This document shows, piece after piece, positions 707 to 62,487 of a stretch of 63,032 nt of DNA. Position 1 is the stretch's first letter, and every line of letters begins with the position of its first letter. Below the pieces are notes generated by a model. That model was not told the origin of the DNA. It saw only the letters and a list, made by a program, of their open reading frames with translations, and searched no databases. The stretch is from an uncultured Lachnospiraceae bacterium (GTDB taxonomy: Bacteria > Bacillota > Clostridia > Lachnospirales > Lachnospiraceae). The stretch covers positions 1-63,032 of the forward strand of contig CAYRAV010000013.1 in assembly GCA_964422365.1 (NCBI GenBank), written 5' to 3'. A program made the position numbers and the translations under genes.

Positions 707-1948
707 TTGCTTGAAATAAGAACAAACGAAGCTGATTCTGCGGCTAAGATTTTAGTAATCGGAGTAGGTGGGGCAGGGAATAATGCTGTTAATAGAATGA
801 TAGAGGAAAATATTGTAGGTGTAGAATTTATTTGTGTAAATACAGATAAACAACATTTACAGAACTGTAAAGCACCTACATGTGTCCAGATTGGCGAGAA
901 ATTAACAAAAGGGCTAGGTGCAGGAGCACAGCCGGAAGTAGGAGAAAAGGCAGCTGAAGAAAATAGAGAAGAGTTAACAGAGATTATAAAAGGAGCGGAT
1001 ATGGTATTTGTAACCTGTGGTATGGGTGGCGGTACAGGAACCGGAGCCGCACCTGTAGTAGCAGAGATTTCAAAACAATTAGGGATTCTTACTGTTGGAA
1101 TAGTTACAAAACCATTTCGTTTTGAGGCAAAAGCACGTATGAATAATGCAATTAGTGGTATTGAGAAATTAAAAGAAAGAGTAGATACACTGATTGTGAT
1201 TCCAAATGATAAATTGTTAGAAATTGTTGATCGCAGAACAACAATGCCAGATGCGTTACGTAAAGCAGATGAAGTATTACAGCAAGGTGTACAGGGAATT
1301 ACAGATTTGATTAATGTGCCAGGGTTGATTAACCTTGATTTCGCTGATGTGCAGACTGTCATGAAAGATAAAGGAATTGCTCATATCGGTATTGGTGTAG
1401 GAAAAGGTGATGATAAATGTGTAGATGCAGTCAAAGAAGCCATTACCAGCCCATTGCTGGAAACTACAATTGAAGGTGCATCTCATGTTATTATTAATAT
1501 TTCAGGAGACATCAGTTTAATAGAAGCAAATGAAGCAGCTACATATGTTCAAGAACTGGCAGGTGAGACTGCGAATATTATCTTTGGTGCCATGTATGAC
1601 GAAGGAGCACCAGATTCAGCAGTTATTACAGTGATTGCAACTGGTTTGGACGAGCATGCTAAGGAAATGCCAAAATCTTCTTTACTAGGTGGAAAATTAA
1701 ATGCTAACATGAATGGAACAACAACACAGAAAAGGACAGAAGTACCTTTTCAGTCAATTGCAAAACCAGTGCAGACAGCCAGACCACAGCAAAGAGTGAT
1801 GCAGCCACAGGGGCAAGGTACGGTACAGCAGATGCATCCAATAGATCCGATCAATCCTAACCCAACAATTGAAACACCGATTGTTCGGAGAGAACACTCT
1901 GATGCAGGAGGAATAAAAATACCAACCTTTTTACAAAGGAAGAAATAA
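707..1948 (+). CDS. ftsZ: Cell division GTPase FtsZ
   Basis: Contains the tubulin signature [22 protein letters not shown] and the T7 loop. Has a Q/P-rich C-terminal tail. RBS AAGGAGG precedes a TTG start. Confidence 0.95.
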
Positions 1949-1972
1949 TAGTAATTGAATATATAACATAAT

Positions 1973-2017
1973 AAAAACTATCTTAATTGGTGAGGTAATC
2001 CAAGAGATAGTTTTTTG
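1973..2017 (+). terminator. Rho-independent terminator after ftsZ
   Basis: Imperfect hairpin aaactatctt...aagagatagttt followed by a T-run. Confidence 0.5.
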
Positions 2018-2080
2018 TATTTTAAAAAAATAAATTGCAACAATTCAGAAGATGTCATTTGCAAGATACCAGAATATATG

Positions 2081-2130
2081 TAACAGTTCAGCCGTGCAGA
2101 AACAATTGTATCCTATGCACATGGGATGTA
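2081..2130 (+). repeat. Motif-B repeat copy 1 (TAACAGTTCAGCCGTGCAGAAACAATTGT...ATGCACATGGGATG)
   Basis: Roughly 80% identical to 10183-10240 and, as reverse complement, to 45927-45985 and 52376-52407. Confidence 0.7.
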
Positions 2131-11803: not shown

Positions 11804-11966
11804 GAGAGGTTTAAGAAAATTCATTGCCCCAATCTGCACGTCCACTTTGCGTGTATATTTGCCCCAAATTCATTCAATGTAGCCCGCTATACCTCATGAA
11901 TTTGGAACAAATCCCCCACAAATTGTGACATACATCTTGTAACAAGCAATTTTCAAACACACTTTG
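11804..11966 (+). mobile_element. MITE copy (degenerate left terminus)
   Basis: Interior cattgccccaatctgcacg...ccaaattcattcaatgtagcccgctatacctcatgaatttgg...gcaattttcaaacacac matches the family consensus. Confidence 0.7.
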
Positions 11967-38555: not shown

Positions 38556-38906
38556 TAAAGCATGTTTGAAAATTAAAAATTGTACAAAAAATACCAAAAA
38601 TGTCTGTGATAATAGAGTGAGAATCATAGGAAATTCCCCATTATTGTATGAATGTAGGTTTGATTTTCACATAATTTATGCAATTTTTTGGCATATTGAT
38701 TGTTACAAGATGTATGTCACAATTTGTGGGGGATTTGTTCCAAATTCATGAGGTGTAGCAGGCTGCATTGAAGCAATTTGGAGCAAATATTCATCTTTAT
38801 CGGACGAAGTCCAGAGCATCCTGAATGGGCATGAATTGTGATATGCCTGGATAGGTACGCAAAGTGAGATATGCAGATTGGGCAATGAATGATCAAACAT
38901 GCTATT
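38556..38906 (-). mobile_element. MITE copy in reverse orientation carrying a roughly 120-bp internal insertion
   Basis: Reverse-complement consensus (ttgttacaagatgtatgtcacaatttgtggggga...ccaaattcatgagg...gcaatgaatgatcaaacatgc). Confidence 0.65.
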
Positions 38907-46651: not shown

Positions 46652-46709
46652 AAAACAAGTTTTAATACAATTTTCATTTGTTTTAGAGTTGTTTTTGTTT
46701 TATAAGAAG

Positions 46710-47639
46710 TTATTTTAACAGATTCAGAAAATTTTGATTTCCAATCACACGAATCATAGGTCCAAAGGATAGTATCTCAATCAGTAATTCTGTTTCTGCA
46801 CCTTTATTATAATAGATGAAACATTCATAAGTGTTTTCATCTATTTTTTTTGTATTTTTTTCATAGTTGGAAAACTGCAGCATAGTACGCTCCAGGGCAT
46901 TTCGTTCGTTTTTGATAATAAGGTGTACTGGTTCTTTGTAGTAGGAATGTTTGATTAATCGGTTAATATTAGGACGCTTTTTCTCGTATTTATCCAGTAG
47001 AGTAACAGTTTCAATCCGGTCTAGATTAACAGTTTCGATTCTGGGTGACTTATTATGCCGGTTTTCTAAGGAGAGCAGGCGGAATTTATTATTTTTCATG
47101 GAATATTCTAATCTGCATGGAATATACCAGTGACGGATTCTGTTTCCCGCTCTGGAATGATATAAAATATCTACATGTTGTTTATTTTTAATTGCAGTAA
47201 CAAGTGTGCGGAAATTATGTATGTATGCAGGGTTAGAAAAATCATCTTTATCTGAAAAACGGTCATAGTAGTAAAAATTTTCTGGTGTCCATAGTGGTAT
47301 CACATCCACAAATAGTTCCATAAGAAACTGAACTTGCTCTTTATCAAGAAACAATTGTATTTTCTCATCGAAAAGAATTGATTTTAAAAAAGAAGTCTGC
47401 AAAGAAGTCAGTGGTACGTAAAAATCACTATTGATTTTAGAAAGAAAAACAGTATCTTCTTTCTTTAATAGATTCCATTCTCCGCTTATTAATTTTGGAA
47501 CAATAAACAATGCACTTTCTTCATACCCTAAGTTTTGCATATAGGTATATAAATCTTTTTGTGTGGCATATTTTCGTGTATCAAGTATAGATTTTAATAC
47601 TTGATAGTAGCAGTTGTATAGTTCTGAAAATAATTTCAT
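46710..47639 (-). CDS. WYL-domain transcriptional regulator (second gene of a tandem pair)
   Basis: WYL-type motif RIRHWYIPCRLEY...FRLLSLE...VNLDRIETV. Start set at the ATG after GGAGG. Confidence 0.55.
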   Translation of the reverse strand: MKLFSELYNCYYQVLKSILDTRKYATQKDLYTYMQNLGYEESALFIVPKLISGEWNLLKKEDTVFLSKINSDFYVPLTSLQTSFLKSILFDEKIQLFLDKEQVQFLMELFVDVIPLWTPENFYYYDRFSDKDDFSNPAYIHNFRTLVTAIKNKQHVDILYHSRAGNRIRHWYIPCRLEYSMKNNKFRLLSLENRHNKSPRIETVNLDRIETVTLLDKYEKKRPNINRLIKHSYYKEPVHLIIKNERNALERTMLQFSNYEKNTKKIDENTYECFIYYNKGAETELLIEILSFGPMIRVIGNQNFLNLLK

Positions 47640-47683
47640 ATGATTACCTCCTAGAATATGCATTTTTTGATAAAATGGAGTTG

Positions 47684-48916
47684 TTAAACATGATACATCT
47701 GATACATTGTTTCTAAATCATGTTCAATACGTGCTTTCAAATTAGAATGTTCTGTTTCAATATCAATGATTCGTCCAATAAAAGAACGAATCCACGGTGC
47801 CATTTCGATTGCATCGAATACATCTTTTTCATAGATAAACACATTTTCTGCAATTTTTGTAATTGTACCATTTTTTCCTTCCCGTTGTAAACGGTTCAAG
47901 ATGTATTGTTCTGATTCTTCGTTAATGGATAGGGTTAATTTCACATGTTGTATGTAACTGCGATTATCGCTTTGAAAAGAAACACCCCATGCCTTGTTGC
48001 GGTTACGGTTTAGTTTTTCTAAAATTGTATCAAAATCAGTACAGTGTTCTAGTAAATTTACTTCCTTAATATAATCTAACCGAATGCAGAAGAAACGTTT
48101 AGGCTGCTCATAATACAGACAAAGGAAACGGCGTCCGGTTTTTGTACTAATGAAAATTTGAAGAGGAATACAGCAAGTGACTTGTTTTCTGCTGTTTTTG
48201 CTGCTTTTGATTGTTATTTCAATCCGTTGCTTTTTTCGCAGGGCCGTTAAAATGGAGAGTAATATTTCGTCTTCTAATGTATGTACAAAAAAGCTGTGTT
48301 TCACACGAAAAAGTCTGTTTTCTTCTGATATGGTATCTAAAATAGTGTTTCCTAAAAAGCCTACTGGTGCAGATAACTGATAAAATTTTAGGGCATCTGC
48401 CAGGGCAGGGCATTTTGAAAGTGTTTCTTTAAAAGAAGAATTCTTATAATAAATGATTTTGTGTCCTTGTTTTTCCTTATGAAGTAATCCTTCGTTTTCA
48501 TATTCATTACATTTTCGCCTTACCATTTGTGTCTCAAAAAGAACACCATATTCATTTAAAATGCTGTCTGTAAGTTCTTCCACTGTTTTTCCTTCCGTTG
48601 TGTTTAGATAATCCAAAAGAAAAAAGTGGAGCATAATATCATTGTCTGTAAAACTTTTGGTTTTCCATACATTATAAAGCGGATTGGTATCTAAAAGGTT
48701 ACTGTCAATGGCAAGAGAAATATTTTTTCCATTACTTGTGTAATCTTTTTTAATAAATTTTGAAAGCCAGCTTTCAATCCGCCTCCGTTCATTATCATAA
48801 GTACGAGGACTTTTTTCTTTAAATTCGCCTCTGGTTTTAAAGCCATATACGAAAAAGTCACGAACATATTCGCGGCTTTTAGAGAAAGATTTGATCAGTT
48901 CTTTAAATTCAGACAT
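47684..48916 (-). CDS. WYL-domain transcriptional regulator (first gene of a tandem pair)
   Basis: WYL-type motif RRFLCLYYEQPKRFFCIRLDYIKEV. RBS AAGGAGG. Confidence 0.55.
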   Translation of the reverse strand: MSEFKELIKSFSKSREYVRDFFVYGFKTRGEFKEKSPRTYDNERRRIESWLSKFIKKDYTSNGKNISLAIDSNLLDTNPLYNVWKTKSFTDNDIMLHFFLLDYLNTTEGKTVEELTDSILNEYGVLFETQMVRRKCNEYENEGLLHKEKQGHKIIYYKNSSFKETLSKCPALADALKFYQLSAPVGFLGNTILDTISEENRLFRVKHSFFVHTLEDEILLSILTALRKKQRIEITIKSSKNSRKQVTCCIPLQIFISTKTGRRFLCLYYEQPKRFFCIRLDYIKEVNLLEHCTDFDTILEKLNRNRNKAWGVSFQSDNRSYIQHVKLTLSINEESEQYILNRLQREGKNGTITKIAENVFIYEKDVFDAIEMAPWIRSFIGRIIDIETEHSNLKARIEHDLETMYQMYHV

Positions 48917-49025
48917 GTGGATAAAAACCTCCTTTCAGGTGCAGAAATGGTTTGAAACTATATCTATCATAGCACATTTTAGAATTTTATAAAAGTATTG
49001 TAATTTTTTCATATTGTAACCAGAT

Positions 49026-49188
49026 TGGAGTGTGTTTGGAAATTCACTGCCATAATCTGCACCCTCTGCTTTGTGTGTATATTTGCCCAAATTCATTCAA
49101 TCCAGCCTGCTGCACATCATGAATCTAGAGTGAATCCCCACAAATTGTGACACACATTTTGTAACAAGCAATTTTTCAACACGCTTTA
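49026..49188 (+). mobile_element. MITE copy
   Basis: TGGAGTGTGTTTGGAAATTC...GCAATTTTTCAACACGCTTTA. Confidence 0.75.
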
Positions 49189-49296
49189 GAATTTATAGTT
49201 CGCAACTTTTTTGAAATGATAAATTTTCCATTTCAAGGTATGATAACAACATCACAGATCAACAGTTTCAGACATGAAAAATGTGTTATAGAAAGG

Positions 49297-50538
49297 ATGA
49301 GGGAGATGTTTGTAGTAGCAAATGAAAATACAAAGGTTCCAATGAAAATATGGCTAAGCGGGGCAGACAAAATAGAAGAAAGCTGTTTGGAACAGGCATA
49401 TCATTTAGCAAATCTTCCATTTGTACATAAGTGGGTGTGTTTAATGCCTGATACCCATACAGGAAAAGGAATGCCTATTGGAGGTGTTATTGCAGCAAAA
49501 GATGTGATTATTCCAAATGCAGTGGGTTCTGATATTGGATGCGGCATGGTATTTGCAGCAACTAACATAAAAGCAGCAGATATCAAAGAAATTCAGACAG
49601 GCAATGGAACCATGATACAATCAATGGTTGGCAATATCATGCGTTCTGTGCCAATTGGAGTAAATAAATTTAAAACGAAGCAGGAATCAGCAGTTTTAGC
49701 CAAAGCAGCAGAGGAGATGGAGAAATACAACGAAAATAAAGAGCTGATTCATTTAATAGAAGAAGCATATTATCAGGTAGGAACACTTGGAGGCGGAAAT
49801 CATTTTATTGAATTGCAGGAAGATGAGGAAGGATATTTGTGTGTTATGATTCATTCGGGAAGCCGTCACCTTGGAAAGGAAATCTGTGATTATTTTCACG
49901 ATAAGGCAAGAGCATTAAATATACAATGGCACAGCAGTGTGCTGGAAGAATACAGGCTTGCGTTTTTACCTGTAAACACAAAAGAAGGAAAGGAATATAT
50001 TAACTGGATGAATCTGGCACTTGATTACGCAGAAGAAAATAGAGCACATATGTTAGAAAGTGTTTGCAGGATTGTAAAGGAGCAGATTGAGAAACAGATA
50101 GATGTTACAGTAGAATTTACAGATCACATCAACTGTCATCACAATTATGCGGCATTAGAAAATCATTATGGAGAGAATGTATGGGTGCACCGAAAAGGGG
50201 CGACCAGAGCAAGGGAAGGGGAAAGAGCAGTTATTCCTGGTGCAATGGGTTCCTATAGTTATGTAGTGGAAGGCAAAGGTAATCCAATGACTTTTTGTTC
50301 CTCTTCTCATGGAGCAGGAAGAAATTATTCCAGAAGCGGGGCGAAGGCAAATTTTTCTGTAGAAAAAGTCATGGTAGATTTGAAAGAACAAGGTGTTGTT
50401 CTTGGAAAAAGAAATAAAAATGATGTAGCAGAAGAATGTAGATTTGCCTACAAAGATATTGATGAAGTAATGGAACAGCAAAAAGATCTGGTTACACCAA
50501 TCAGAAAATTAAAAACAGTTGGTGTGGTAAAAGGATAA
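49297..50538 (+). CDS. rtcB: RNA 3'-phosphate/2',3'-cyclic phosphate ligase RtcB
   Basis: RtcB signatures: DTHTGKGMPIGG, GSDIGCGM, GGGNHFIE, HSGSRHLG, NCHHNYA, HRKGAT, SSSHGAGR. Confidence 0.9.
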   Translation: MREMFVVANENTKVPMKIWLSGADKIEESCLEQAYHLANLPFVHKWVCLMPDTHTGKGMPIGGVIAAKDVIIPNAVGSDIGCGMVFAATNIKAADIKEIQTGNGTMIQSMVGNIMRSVPIGVNKFKTKQESAVLAKAAEEMEKYNENKELIHLIEEAYYQVGTLGGGNHFIELQEDEEGYLCVMIHSGSRHLGKEICDYFHDKARALNIQWHSSVLEEYRLAFLPVNTKEGKEYINWMNLALDYAEENRAHMLESVCRIVKEQIEKQIDVTVEFTDHINCHHNYAALENHYGENVWVHRKGATRAREGERAVIPGAMGSYSYVVEGKGNPMTFCSSSHGAGRNYSRSGAKANFSVEKVMVDLKEQGVVLGKRNKNDVAEECRFAYKDIDEVMEQQKDLVTPIRKLKTVGVVKG

Positions 50539-50702
50539 TGCTGGTAACCTGCAAAAGGCAGGATTATCATAGATGAAAGGTTATACTATACATGAGTATG
50601 ACAGAAAATCTGTTGCTCTGTGGTGCCGGCATAATTATGCATGGTATACCGTATAACGTTTCTTTGCACTATTTTGGATATAGCTGCAAAATATAACGTG
50701 GT

Positions 50703-50812
50703 GTCAGTGGTTCAAATCCACTACGGAATTTTCCGTTAGCTCAGCTGGGTAGAGCACCACTGGTAGCCGGAATACGGCAGATGGTTCGAATCCATCAATC
50801 AAAGTACCTGCC
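50703..50812 (+). ncRNA. tRNA-like element with tRNA modules in permuted order (not a canonical tRNA)
   Basis: A T-arm-like hairpin agtggttcaaatccact plus acggaa, then ttccgt plus D-arm gctcagctgggtagagc, a short hairpin gccggaatacggc and a second T-arm gatggttcgaatccatc. No foldable anticodon arm and no CCA. Confidence 0.3.
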
Positions 50813-51141
50813 ACGTACTTTAATCTCATAAATGTAGAATTATCTTTTTGTAGGTGCATGCAGCTGTCTTGCAGTTACATTGCAATTTATAATATTGCTT
50901 GTAAAAATGGGGATACCGTATTCAACTTATTGTATGACATAAAAGAAATCACAGGATTCTGTAAGAGTTTTATTGTTACAGAATCAAGTTGCCGCCAATG
51001 CAGATTTTATTTGTATAAGGCAGCAGGTTTCGGACGCCTTGTACATTAAGCAATCCTTAACCAATTTTCCGCAATATGATAAAAACAAAAGGATAATTCT
51101 ATATGAAACACAGAGCATATGAAAAATATGGGGGAATTTTA

Positions 51142-52251
51142 ATGAAAATGATAGTAATAAAAGAAAAACAGGCAGGATATGTAATAAAAAATGGCATATT
51201 TGTGAAAATGATTACAGCAGGAAAATATTTCTATCCAAAGGCACTAGGATATGAAGTTATAATAGAAGAAATGCTAGGAGAAACAGAGGGCATAGAGCTG
51301 CCATATGAAGTGCTGATAAAAGACAAAAAATATAAAGAATCTGTTATTCGTTTTCAAATACCAGATGGTTCGATTGGATTAATTTATGTAAATGGGATAT
51401 TGAGAACATTTGCAACAAGAAAAGAATACATATTTTGGAATGTATATGAAACTTATGACATAAAACTTATTTCTATGGAAGAAACAGAAATAAACAAGAC
51501 AATAACAAAACAGATGCTTTCTGTTATTCCAAGAACGTATTATACTCAAATATGTGTGGAAGAAGGGGAAACAGGATTATTGTATTACAACAATATTCTA
51601 CAGCGACAGTTAGAACCTGGTATTTATTACTTTTGGAATTACAAAGTAGCTGTTACTTATAGAATTGTAAGCCTTAAGTTGAATGAACTTAATATAATTG
51701 GACAGGAAATTTTAACAAAAGATAAGATAGGAATTAGAATGAATGTAGTATGCTCCTATAAAATCACAGATGCAGTGGGAGTGGCATGCCAGATTACAGA
51801 TCTGGCAAAACAATTGTATTCCTATATCCAGTTAGTAATCAGGGAGTTAGTTGGAAATTATAAATTAGATGAAATATTAGAGCAGAAAAGTAAAATTTCG
51901 GAAGAAATATATGAGAAGCTGAAGAAAAGAGAAACAGAACTTTATGTAGAATTTCTTTCATCAGGAATAAAGGACATTATCTTACCGGGAGAAATAAGAG
52001 ATATTATGAATACTGTACTAGTTGCAGAAAAAACTGCTCAGGCAAATGTTATTACAAGAAGAGAAGAGGTTGCATCTACCCGGTCTTTACTTAATACTGC
52101 AAAATTGATGGAGGAAAATAAAACATTATATAAATTAAAAGAATTAGAATATCTCGAAAAAATCTGCACGAAGGTAGGAGAAATATCTGTGAATGGAAAT
52201 GCAGGACTAATTGAACAATTAAGTATGTTAATAGGAGACAGACAACCATAA
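51142..52251 (+). CDS. SPFH/band-7 (slipin/flotillin-like) domain protein
   Basis: SPFH core followed by a coiled-coil (ILPGEIRDIMNTVLVAEKTAQANVITRREE). Confidence 0.7.
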   Translation: MKMIVIKEKQAGYVIKNGIFVKMITAGKYFYPKALGYEVIIEEMLGETEGIELPYEVLIKDKKYKESVIRFQIPDGSIGLIYVNGILRTFATRKEYIFWNVYETYDIKLISMEETEINKTITKQMLSVIPRTYYTQICVEEGETGLLYYNNILQRQLEPGIYYFWNYKVAVTYRIVSLKLNELNIIGQEILTKDKIGIRMNVVCSYKITDAVGVACQITDLAKQLYSYIQLVIRELVGNYKLDEILEQKSKISEEIYEKLKKRETELYVEFLSSGIKDIILPGEIRDIMNTVLVAEKTAQANVITRREEVASTRSLLNTAKLMEENKTLYKLKELEYLEKICTKVGEISVNGNAGLIEQLSMLIGDRQP

Positions 52252-52370
52252 AATGCTTGTTACAAGATGTGCATCACAATTTGTGGGGGGATTTGGTCCA
52301 AATTCATGAGGCATAACAGGTTATATTGAATGAATTTGAATCAAATATCTGCACAAAGTGGGGCATACAT
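52251..52370 (-). mobile_element. Truncated MITE copy in reverse orientation
   Basis: gcttgttacaagatgtgcatcacaatttgtgggggg...ccaaattcatgagg. Begins at the last base of the SPFH stop codon. Confidence 0.55.
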
Positions 52371-55103: not shown

Positions 55104-55329
55104 TAGAGCGTGTTTGAAAATTCATTGCCACAATCTGAACGCTCCAATTTGTGTACCCATCCGGACATACCGAAATCCATGCCTATTCAGGCTGGCGGAC
55201 TTTGTTCAATAAGGTATGGATATTTGTTCCAAAATCATTCAATGCAGCCCGCTGCATCTCATGAATTTGGAACAATCCCCACAAATTGTGACGCACATCT
55301 TTTAACAAGCAATTTTCAAACACGCTCTA
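55104..55329 (+). mobile_element. MITE copy (long variant with a roughly 65-bp internal module)
   Basis: Perfect 19-bp terminal inverted repeats TAGAGCGTGTTTGAAAATT/AATTTTCAAACACGCTCTA with TA flanks. Confidence 0.85.
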
Positions 55330-56877: not shown

Positions 56878-57056
56878 TGTCAAATGCTGCCACAATTTAT
56901 GTCATTTGGGCTGGCAGACTTTGTTCAATAAAGTATGGTGTTGGCCTAAATTCATTTCGTGCAGTCCGTTGCACCTCATGAATTTGGAACAAATTTTTCA
57001 CAAATTGTCATACTCATCTTGTAACAAGTAATTTTCAAACATGTCAGGTGTATATG
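56878..57056 (+). mobile_element. MITE copy (5'-degenerate; contains the same internal module as 55104)
   Basis: tgccacaatttatg...ctggcagactttgttcaataaagtatgg...ccgttgcacctcatgaatttgg...gtaattttcaaacatgtc. Confidence 0.65.
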
Positions 57057-60542: not shown

Positions 60543-60650
60543 AGCGTGTTTGAAAATTCATTGCTACAATCTGCATGTCCTGCTTTGCGTGTATATTTAC
60601 CCCAAATTCTCCACAGATTATGATGTACATCTTGTAAAAAGCAATTTCAG
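60540..60650 (+). mobile_element. Truncated MITE copy (left terminal repeat intact, hairpin and right end missing)
   Basis: TAGAGCGTGTTTGAAAATTCATTGCTACAATCTGCA...gtacatcttgtaaaaagcaattt. Confidence 0.7.
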
Positions 60651-62322: not shown

Positions 62323-62487
62323 TAGAGCGTGTTTGAAAATTTATTATCACAATCTGCACACCTTCATTTTGCACGGATATTAGGTCCAAATTCATTCAAT
62401 GCAGCCCGCTGCACCTCATGAAATTGGACCTAATATCCCACAAATTGTAACACACATCTTGAACAAGCAATTTTCAAACACGATCAA
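62323..62487 (+). mobile_element. MITE copy
   Basis: TAGAGCGTGTTTGAAAATT...hairpin ccaaattcattcaatgcagcccgctgcacctcatgaaattgg...GCAATTTTCAAACACGATCA. Confidence 0.8.

Follow-up and report, generated by a model that had tools for sequence, protein, structure and literature searches.

RtcB operons are widespread and, to our knowledge, their control is understood solely for RtcR in enterobacteria. Here, we describe an rtcB locus from an uncultured gut Lachnospiraceae bacterium, located on contig CAYRAV010000013.1 (assembly GCA_964422365.1, positions 1 to 63,032; this whole stretch is hereafter called the window), where rtcB is followed by a tRNA-mimicking RNA and by a gene for a stomatin-like SPFH protein, and is transcribed divergently from two genes encoding WYL-domain regulators, WYL-A and WYL-B. 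In related loci, a two-protein WYL factor, a promoter-proximal site and targets consisting of rtcB, a tRNA-mimic RNA and either a stomatin-like or a Ro-like protein form a conserved module, whose cultivable carriers include Lachnospiraceae bacterium COE1, 3-1 and JLR.KK009, Petralouisia muris and Roseburia sp. 1XD42-69. Our favored reading, to which we assign a probability of about 0.6, is that the locus is a chromosomal Lachnospiraceae RNA-repair and Y-RNA-like regulon placed under a WYL pair in place of RtcR.

Among the closest described systems, the Salmonella rsr-yrlBA-rtcBA operon is induced via RtcR by tRNA halves with cyclic phosphate ends (PMC7790460, PMC10159003). It shares with the present locus the association of RtcB with a tRNA-mimicking noncoding RNA, co-transcribed with it (PMC4201824), and a dedicated divergent regulator of the ligand-sensing type. 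Moreover, its Ro60-like vWA protein has a counterpart in sister loci of ours, which can be viewed, by analogy, as close analogues of this operon. However, the sensors differ, with a sigma-70-type winged helix-turn-helix (wHTH)-WYL pair here and a CARF/AAA+ sigma-54 activator there. The rtcB promoter of the window carries a sigma-70-type -10 box and is not a sigma-54 promoter, and a Pfam scan of 25 window open reading frames (ORFs), including every ORF of at least 440 aa, revealed neither a sigma-54 nor a CARF protein. This agrees with an earlier interpretation made from the DNA letters (hereafter the sequence-only reading), which had reported RtcR as absent. The locus further differs in having no rtcA (no RtcA-like gene was found in the window, nor any RtcA-like cluster among the conserved neighbors of the 80 loci compared below), in carrying a stomatin-like gene and no Ro-like gene in the window, and in its RNA, which is twice as long and without the GNCGAAN0-1G Rsr site.

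Regarding the regulators, the actinobacterial heterodimer PafBC, an activator responding to DNA damage, is likewise made of tandem paralogous wHTH-WYL-WCX proteins with natural fusions and acts at a nonpalindromic DNA site replacing or overlapping the -35 element; its fold matches both of our proteins (Foldseek E 2e-10 for WYL-B and 4e-9 for WYL-A). However, no sequence-profile similarity speaks for orthology, the host is here a member of Bacillota, the motif TTCGCAACTTTTTTGAAATGAT differs from the RecA-NDp promoter motif used by PafBC, the targets are RNA-repair and ribonucleoprotein (RNP) genes instead of recA and DNA-repair genes, and WYL-A possesses an extra N-terminal region of ~90 residues. 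DriD from Caulobacter (Foldseek E 1.3e-11 for WYL-B and 3.7e-10 for WYL-A), CapW and BrxR share the three-domain architecture and exert a ligand-gated control of stress or defense next to the regulated promoter. Unlike the pair described here, they are single-gene homodimers, with single-stranded DNA (ssDNA) as known ligand for DriD and CapW; their targets are SOS-independent damage genes, CBASS or BREX, without a link to RtcB for any of them. A statement by the Aravind group proposes WYL factors as sensors of cyclic-ended RNA regulating RNA-repair pathways (PMC9503650). As for the RNA, the permuted core of YrlA consists of a T-arm, a closed acceptor-like hairpin and a D-arm (PMC4201824).

A WYL pair and its candidate operator

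The genes and promoter elements of the locus are listed below.

46710..47639, minus strand: WYL-B, wHTH-WYL-WCX transcription factor, 309 aa (PADLOC, AlphaFold2, Foldseek, ribosome-binding site)
47684..48916, minus strand: WYL-A, wHTH-WYL-WCX transcription factor, 410 aa (PADLOC, AlphaFold2, Foldseek, ribosome-binding site)
49069..49185, no strand: repeat resembling a miniature inverted-repeat transposable element (MITE), between the WYL-A gene and the motif (blastn)
49197..49220, plus strand: asymmetric motif AGTTCGCAACTTTTTTGAAATGAT, candidate operator of the WYL pair (conservation), overlapping the rtcB -35 position
49239..49244, plus strand: -10 box TATGAT of the rtcB promoter (promoter scan, ATGATA-17-TATGAT)
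49297..50538, plus strand: rtcB, RNA 3'-phosphate/5'-OH ligase, 413 aa (Pfam RtcB, E 3.9e-113, full length)
50545..50566, plus strand: hairpin right after the rtcB stop codon, without T-run (sequence; a hairpin stands at the same place in close relatives)
51103..52251, plus strand: stomatin-like SPFH protein, 382 aa (Pfam Band_7, E 1.3e-24; stomatin in the PDB, E 1e-11 to 6e-13)

The sequence-only reading had singled out two minus-strand genes, separated by 44 nt and each with its own ribosome-binding site, as encoding WYL-type proteins, and both statements hold. The ribosome-binding sites are GGAGG before 48916 and AGGAGG 7 nt before 47639, and both proteins are matched by the PADLOC WYL hidden Markov model PDLC01652 (E 2e-8 over residues 210-404 of WYL-A; E 5e-9 over residues 140-314 of WYL-B), the match covering in each case the WYL domain and the C-terminal extension. 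Pfam alone is weak, its WYL model reaching 15.5 bits on WYL-B (E 0.018), under the cutoff of 21.8 bits, and no Pfam model matching WYL-A; NCBIfam gave nothing useful for the two proteins. The AlphaFold2 models (pLDDT, the predicted local distance difference test, of 68 for WYL-A and 85 for WYL-B, residues 1-90 of WYL-A being poorly modelled) display helix-helix-helix-strand-strand modules in both proteins, and wHTH domains are thus detected in addition to WYL. In Foldseek searches with either model, alignments of 336-354 columns were obtained with DriD, PafBC, CapW and BrxR over their full length (E 1e-11 to 1e-6), nothing else being significant. On the two independent lines of the PADLOC model and the fold matches, both proteins are wHTH-WYL-WCX transcription factors. 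Compared with each other by hhalign, they are only weakly similar (E 0.28, in the WYL region only). The additional N-terminal ~90 residues of WYL-A are the most conserved part of its family, although their fold is uncertain. WYL-A has 2092 homologues; homologues come almost entirely from Lachnospiraceae. In this genome, the WYL-B gene ends 9 codons earlier than in its closest relatives, with TAA where they have GAA (46683-46712, minus strand). Either this strain lacks the last 9 residues of the C-terminal helix or the TAA stems from sequencing; past it, the in-frame continuation still reads ...KQKQL*.

Loci were compared using the best 80 WYL-A genome loci, drawn from 434 genomes with WYL-A relatives in a scan of one genome per species. 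WYL-B directly follows WYL-A on the same strand in 74 of the 80 loci (the contig allows this to be seen in 77), and rtcB lies divergently upstream of WYL-A in 51, so that the divergent layout reported by the sequence-only reading proves to be conserved. An exhaustive search of 1.84 billion cluster representatives returned 1250 relatives, and about 10 of the best 150 cluster representatives are 728-855 aa long. The two checked directly are A-B fusions: residues 456-787 of P0247 align to WYL-B with 39% identity (E 3e-66), and residues 405-720 of P0252 with 36% identity (E 1e-58); eight other representatives (746-855 aa) are candidates by length only. Together, adjacency and natural fusions, as known for PafB/PafC and the fused PafBC, are good indirect evidence that WYL-A and WYL-B work as one factor, and the fusions lend Rosetta-stone support to the resemblance with PafB/PafC that had been proposed for the tandem pair. 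In five loci (L005, L009, L016, L052 and L054), the pair was found with neither rtcB, DUF2828, SPFH nor the motif in the fetched flanks; regulators and targets are therefore unlinked in some genomes.

Alignment of the divergent intergenic regions exposed a conserved motif of the extended form (AG)TTCGCAACTTTTTTGAAATGAT, whose 22-nt core TTCGCAACTTTTTTGAAATGAT occupies positions 49199-49220 and ends 18 nt before the rtcB -10 box. The window holds no other copy of it, chance predicting 0 occurrences. The motif is present with at most three mismatches in 73 of the 80 genome loci and is near-invariant over 119 distinct instances while the neighboring proteins are merely 55-65% identical. Moreover, a scan of all metagenome contigs with an exact 20-mer, i.e., a selection through the motif alone and not through WYL-A, retrieved 71 contigs. 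In almost all of them, what follows directly downstream on the motif's own strand is rtcB, a tRNA-like RNA with DUF2828, or the RNA with SPFH, and WYL-A lies divergently beside the motif in at least 45. Three or four of these contigs (L115, L124, L140) look like chance matches. When targets are dispersed, each has its own copy of the motif (two copies in L015, L030 and L036, three in L035), and in L001 and L102, where 2-5 kb separate rtcB from the regulators, it is rtcB that the motif accompanies. For these reasons, the motif belongs to the regulated genes and not to the regulator genes, as should be the case for the operator that it is predicted to be. The shared operator that the sequence-only reading proposed to look for has a plausible counterpart, tracking rtcB, the RNA and the Ro-like gene wherever they are located. 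No match to the motif was obtained in viral contigs.

The position of the motif relative to the promoter is also constrained. A TATAAT-like box begins 40 nt after the motif start in 58 of the 119 instances and 45 nt after it in 16. The sole -35-like hexamer is the 3' end of the motif itself, ATGAT(A/T) (ATGATA here), with three of six positions matched, and the rtcB promoter has no clean extended -10; on these two grounds, it is predicted to be weak without an activator. The center of the motif is located ~42 nt upstream of the predicted start site, and an activator site centered near -42 is the classic class II activator position. Finally, a nonpalindromic motif suits a putative factor made of two different wHTH subunits. 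A palindrome, TTGAAATG-N10-CATTTCAA (49211-49236), overlaps the 3' half of the conserved motif; it was rejected as operator, being found only in the window and a few close relatives.

The RtcB protein is 72-79% identical in relatives, with an SSSHGAGR motif visible in its translation; a longer rtcB ORF of 440 aa, starting at ATG 49216, was rejected because this codon falls inside the conserved promoter. As already noticed in the sequence-only reading, the intergenic region also holds a MITE-like repeat, of which blastn finds at least four further copies of ~85% identity in the window (11845-11953, 55229-55326, 38695-38790 on the minus strand and 62386-62474). This repeat has pushed the WYL-A gene away from the motif, which accounts for a distance of 284 nt here as compared with 30-165 nt in most relatives. 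Partial copies of this ~100-nt MITE-like or repetitive extragenic palindromic (REP)-like element occur at 52254-52288, 56999-57035 and 60546-60598, and an insert related to it is present in L053. The surrounding genes are ordinary chromosomal ones (ftsZ, a class A penicillin-binding protein gene, recQ, two-component systems and spoIIGA).

The tRNA-mimicking RNA and the alternative protein partners

Directly 3' of rtcB, the sequence-only reading had recognized a tRNA-like element of about 110 nt with D-arm and T-arm modules. These modules are real but the size was underestimated: the conserved structured RNA is ~215 nt long (50580-50797), the tRNA-like segment being its 3' half. Likewise, the element does lie downstream of rtcB in the window but is linked more tightly to the stomatin-like gene. 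With an nhmmer profile, the RNA was found at full length in 28 genome loci and 16 metagenome contigs (E 1e-35 to 1e-61), no second copy being found in the window, and it occurs together with the SPFH gene in all 28 loci and with DUF2828 in none of them. Its parts, all on the plus strand, are the following.

50580..50657: 5' domain, made of a closing helix, two hairpins and conserved GGCGG-type linkers
50580-85 with 50652-57: closing helix of the 5' domain (RNAalifold, pair counts)
50594-50618: first hairpin of the 5' domain (RNAalifold, pair counts)
50623-50647: second hairpin of the 5' domain (RNAalifold, pair counts)
Between the 5' domain and the tRNA-like domain: variable hairpin region
50697..50760: permuted tRNA-like domain (Rfam YrlA, compensatory changes, invariant nucleotides)
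50697-703 with 50755-60: enclosing stem CGTGGTG/CACCAC (compensatory changes)
50706-22: T-arm 1 (compensatory changes)
50723-36: closed acceptor-like hairpin (compensatory changes)
50739-55: D-arm (YrlA match)
50766-78: anticodon-arm-like hairpin with a 7-nt loop (4 covarying pairs; 74% paired, partly misaligned)
50780-96: T-arm 2 (100% paired, 2 covarying pairs)

The structure was examined on 35 distinct aligned sequences. RNAalifold yields 43 pairs, 26 of which show compensatory changes, and a 62-pair model reaches 95.7% pairing versus 35-45% with slid partners; double changes are seen for 35 of the 62 pairs, with a covariation score of 0.321 against 0.05-0.10. In the 5' domain, helices 1-5 are 95-99.6% paired and include 19 pairs with compensatory changes. 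The nucleotides making tertiary contacts in tRNA (U8, A14, G15, G18/19, A21, the T-loop and the C48-equivalent at 50705) are invariant. The window copy alone folds in the same way, with a minimum free energy z-score of -3.4. The 5' domain may also pair over a long range (CCAT/ATGG) with the segment that follows the D-arm; all sequences allow this pairing, and no double changes are seen in it.

At gathering thresholds, Rfam finds nothing in the window. Below them, positions 50702-50755 match positions 27-81 of the YrlA model (RF02553) with 33.8 bits (E 5e-5; gathering score 69). The two RNAs share the permuted T-arm, acceptor-like hairpin and D-arm, an enclosing stem that replaces the anticodon stem, and the tertiary-contact nucleotides. 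However, the present RNA has no Rsr motif and no adjacent rsr, no same-strand Ro60/Rsr gene being located within about 4 kb, and it adds a 5' three-way junction, an anticodon-like hairpin and a second T-arm; it is best described as YrlA-like and not as a member of the YrlA family. Unlike a tRNA, it forms no open-acceptor cloverleaf with the anticodon arm in standard order. ARAGORN reports no tRNA here, and the element reaches 22.9 with the Rfam tRNA model, under 29, its acceptor being unpaired.

As the scan found neither a terminator nor a separate promoter between rtcB and the RNA, the latter is probably co-transcribed with rtcB and then processed. No plus-strand terminator was called between rtcB and the next gene, and the hairpin following the rtcB stop codon may be a processing or stability element, perhaps the site releasing the RNA. 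The order motif, RNA, SPFH, without rtcB, is found in L109, L136, L100, L104 and L122. Variants of the permuted tRNA-like RNA that diverge further in sequence, transcribed straight from the motif promoter and followed by SPFH were also seen in L100 (3064-3600), L104 and L122 and in L096 (1755-2385), L088 and L111; the RNA family is therefore broader than the 35 aligned sequences. In the spacer between the RNA and the SPFH gene (~50800-51100), a conserved block around 50905-50925, AAAATGGGGATACCGTA, stands with several hairpins and could be a leader of the SPFH mRNA. The 150 N-terminal residues of the SPFH protein have no profile match and no hydrophobic segment, and hence the protein is probably cytosolic. 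Its gene was never seen together with the Ro-like DUF2828 gene.

In 32 of the 80 loci, a protein of 504-567 aa with DUF2828 and DUF7788 (vWA) domains is encoded instead of the RNA and SPFH protein, most often just ahead of rtcB. Over 94% of its length, it shares 33-35% identity with proteins of mycobacteriophages and other phages annotated as 'Ro-like RNA binding protein' or 'Ro sixty-related'. Its profile gave no Ro60 match among PDB sequences, so that it is called Ro-like on the ground of its homology to these phage proteins, which are themselves Ro-like by annotation only. As with these phage proteins, it is encoded beside a tRNA-like RNA, but its gene is chromosomal, in an operon with rtcB under the motif, and the window lacks it. 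Ahead of the DUF2828 gene stand one or two non-permuted tRNA-like RNAs of ~110 nt, beginning some 65-80 nt past the motif. A hairpin of conserved sequence, AGGTCTTGNCAAAGACCT, together with TTAACAGCAA, takes the place of their anticodon arm. They reach 30-50 bits with the Rfam tRNA model, and their acceptor and T stems covary, while ARAGORN finds no tRNA in them and Rfam does not hold them as a family.

L019 5521-5774 (minus strand), L012 5215-5327 (minus strand) and L030 8325-8437 (plus strand): sister tRNA-like RNAs, with about 40 further loci

By comparison with these sister loci, the window is the variant where the Ro-like protein and its RNA are replaced by a stomatin-like protein together with a permuted RNA of larger size. 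A few kilobases from the WYL locus, L040 carries two tandem copies of the Clostridiales-1 RNA (RF01699, 97 and 69 bits; 1775-2115, minus strand).

Proposed mechanism and rival explanations

In the mechanism that we propose, WYL-A and WYL-B would be co-transcribed and act as a PafBC-like heterodimer, recognizing the asymmetric 22-24-nt site AGTTCGCAACTTTTTTGAAATGAT at a promoter endowed with a -10 box but no proper -35. Their WYL domains would bind a nucleic-acid ligand, most plausibly damaged-RNA fragments or ends, thereby switching on the rtcB-RNA-SPFH unit. RtcB would then reseal broken RNAs, while the ~215-nt RNA, with its 5' three-way junction, permuted YrlA-type domain, anticodon-like hairpin and second T-arm, would be cut from the transcript and work with the stomatin-like protein, as the sister non-permuted RNA would with the Ro60-like DUF2828/vWA protein. 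Binding of the motif by the pair, as a heterodimer, is suggested by conservation and by analogy with PafBC. Three features favor activation over repression, namely a fold that comes closest to those of DriD and PafBC, the poor -35 and the position of the site, centered near -42. RNA ends are the ligand suggested by analogy with RtcR, which responds to tRNA halves, and by comparative-genomics statements. Processing of the RNA from the transcript is likewise what we infer, and its strict co-occurrence with SPFH is the one observation that points to a partnership between the two.

Several observations weigh against this reading. The WYL pair is tied to the motif through guilt by association, and the 80 genome loci were selected via WYL-A. 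At the level of sequence, the family profiles of WYL-A and WYL-B retrieve no WYL protein among PDB sequences up to E 10 and yield no alignment with the ligand-contacting residues of solved structures, the WYL-A model is only moderately confident, and WYL-B is here deprived of its last 9 residues. Regarding the ligand, the best-matching solved WYL factors bind ssDNA and not RNA. The YrlA match spans only 55 of the 114 model positions, with its sub-gathering score, the Rsr-binding motif GNCGAAN0-1G is found in one of the 35 aligned RNAs and not in the window copy, and tblastn found no DUF2828/Ro-like gene in the 63-kb window. Further points of this kind are best considered with the rival explanations that they feed.

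The sign of the regulation is one of them. The pair could be a repressor sitting on the -35 region of the rtcB promoter and released by its ligand, a reading that we hold to be unlikely though well worth keeping in mind: CapW and BrxR, which are among the fold matches, are repressors, leaving the sign either way, the motif covers the sole -35-like hexamer, an overlap that would suit a repressor too, and a statement of the Aravind group describes the WYL one-component factors of conflict systems as negative regulators (PMC9503650). Nevertheless, two activators, DriD and PafBC, rank first among the fold matches, a promoter with a 3/6 match to the -35 and no clean extended -10 would be weak without an activator, and the center of the motif falls at the position established for class II activators. 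We consider it very improbable that another factor binds the motif, or that the motif serves an alternative sigma factor as promoter element, with the WYL pair a mere neighbor regulating something else. Such a situation would account for the nine of 80 loci in which the pair is present while targets and motif are not nearby, which also count against a WYL-controlled regulon, and for motif-bearing contigs with no WYL gene in the fetched flank (L095, L114, L151). Against it, WYL-A and WYL-B are the sole regulators conserved beside the motif, the divergent layout recurs in contigs retrieved by the motif only, the asymmetry of the site is in keeping with a wHTH factor of two subunits, and the spacing to the -10 box (18 nt past the motif end, 22 nt from TTGAAA) fits no standard -35/-10 geometry.

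The nature of the RNA can be discussed in the same way. With no evident terminator or promoter of its own, the 215-nt element might be a cis-acting leader or processing module of the SPFH mRNA, e.g., a tRNA-mimic recruiting RNase P/Z or setting translation, and this too tells against a free RNA. In 28/28 loci, the element precedes SPFH and shares its strand, several contigs place it directly between the motif promoter and SPFH, the scan calls no terminator between the two, and the sister tRNA-like RNA is likewise in the 5' leader of the DUF2828 gene. We nonetheless judge this role rather improbable, as ~300 nt of poorly conserved sequence separate the element from the SPFH start codon, the tertiary-contact nucleotides of its tRNA-like core are invariant, as is typical of YrlA and other stable tRNA mimics, and YrlA RNAs, although co-transcribed with protein genes, build up in free form (PMC4201824). 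A tRNA gene in decay, or the functionless remnant of a repeat, could be invoked from the negative ARAGORN result, the sub-threshold Rfam tRNA score and the MITE family active in this genome. Such a reading is refuted by the covariation evidence and retains hardly any credibility: conservation of the element extends over 215 nt between genomes with proteins only 55-65% identical, 35 of its pairs covary, the permuted order of its modules is foreign to a decayed tRNA, and no other copy exists in the window.

Starting from the regulon under WYL control that we favor, a bolder extension can be formulated, which we regard as doubtful. The paired WYL factors would sense damaged RNA and not ssDNA; the tRNA-mimic would belong to the sensor, its anticodon-like hairpin offering a bait to anticodon nucleases or ribotoxins, and the WYL ligand would be the RNA once cleaved, or its 2',3'-cyclic-phosphate ends; RtcB would reseal both the bait and cellular tRNAs; and the RNA would form with the stomatin-like protein a new RNP replacing Ro60-Y RNA in surveillance in abundant gut Lachnospiraceae.

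Novelty and significance

In the literature searched, we found no description of a WYL/RtcB/tRNA-mimic system, although an earlier comparative-genomics survey by the Aravind group may show related neighborhoods, and a general link between WYL factors and RNA repair has already been stated by the Aravind group (PMC9503650). What appears to be new is a paired and fused WYL factor outside Actinobacteria, a defined candidate operator, the 215-nt RNA family and the alternation between stomatin-like and Ro-like proteins. The analysis adds a well-supported structured RNA family that Rfam does not contain. It also reveals two mutually exclusive RNP solutions beside RtcB: a linear tRNA-like RNA goes with a Ro-like DUF2828/vWA protein, and a permuted one with a stomatin-like protein.

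With a different class of sensor (WYL), a defined candidate operator and a compact set of targets in major bacteria of the human and animal gut, the locus makes several questions testable, notably WYL sensing outside DNA damage and phage defense, the existence of PafBC-style heterodimers outside Actinobacteria and the purpose of bacterial Y-RNA-like tRNA mimics. By analogy, it looks like a Gram-positive counterpart of the Salmonella Ro/Y-RNA/RtcB operon, equipped with a different sensor.

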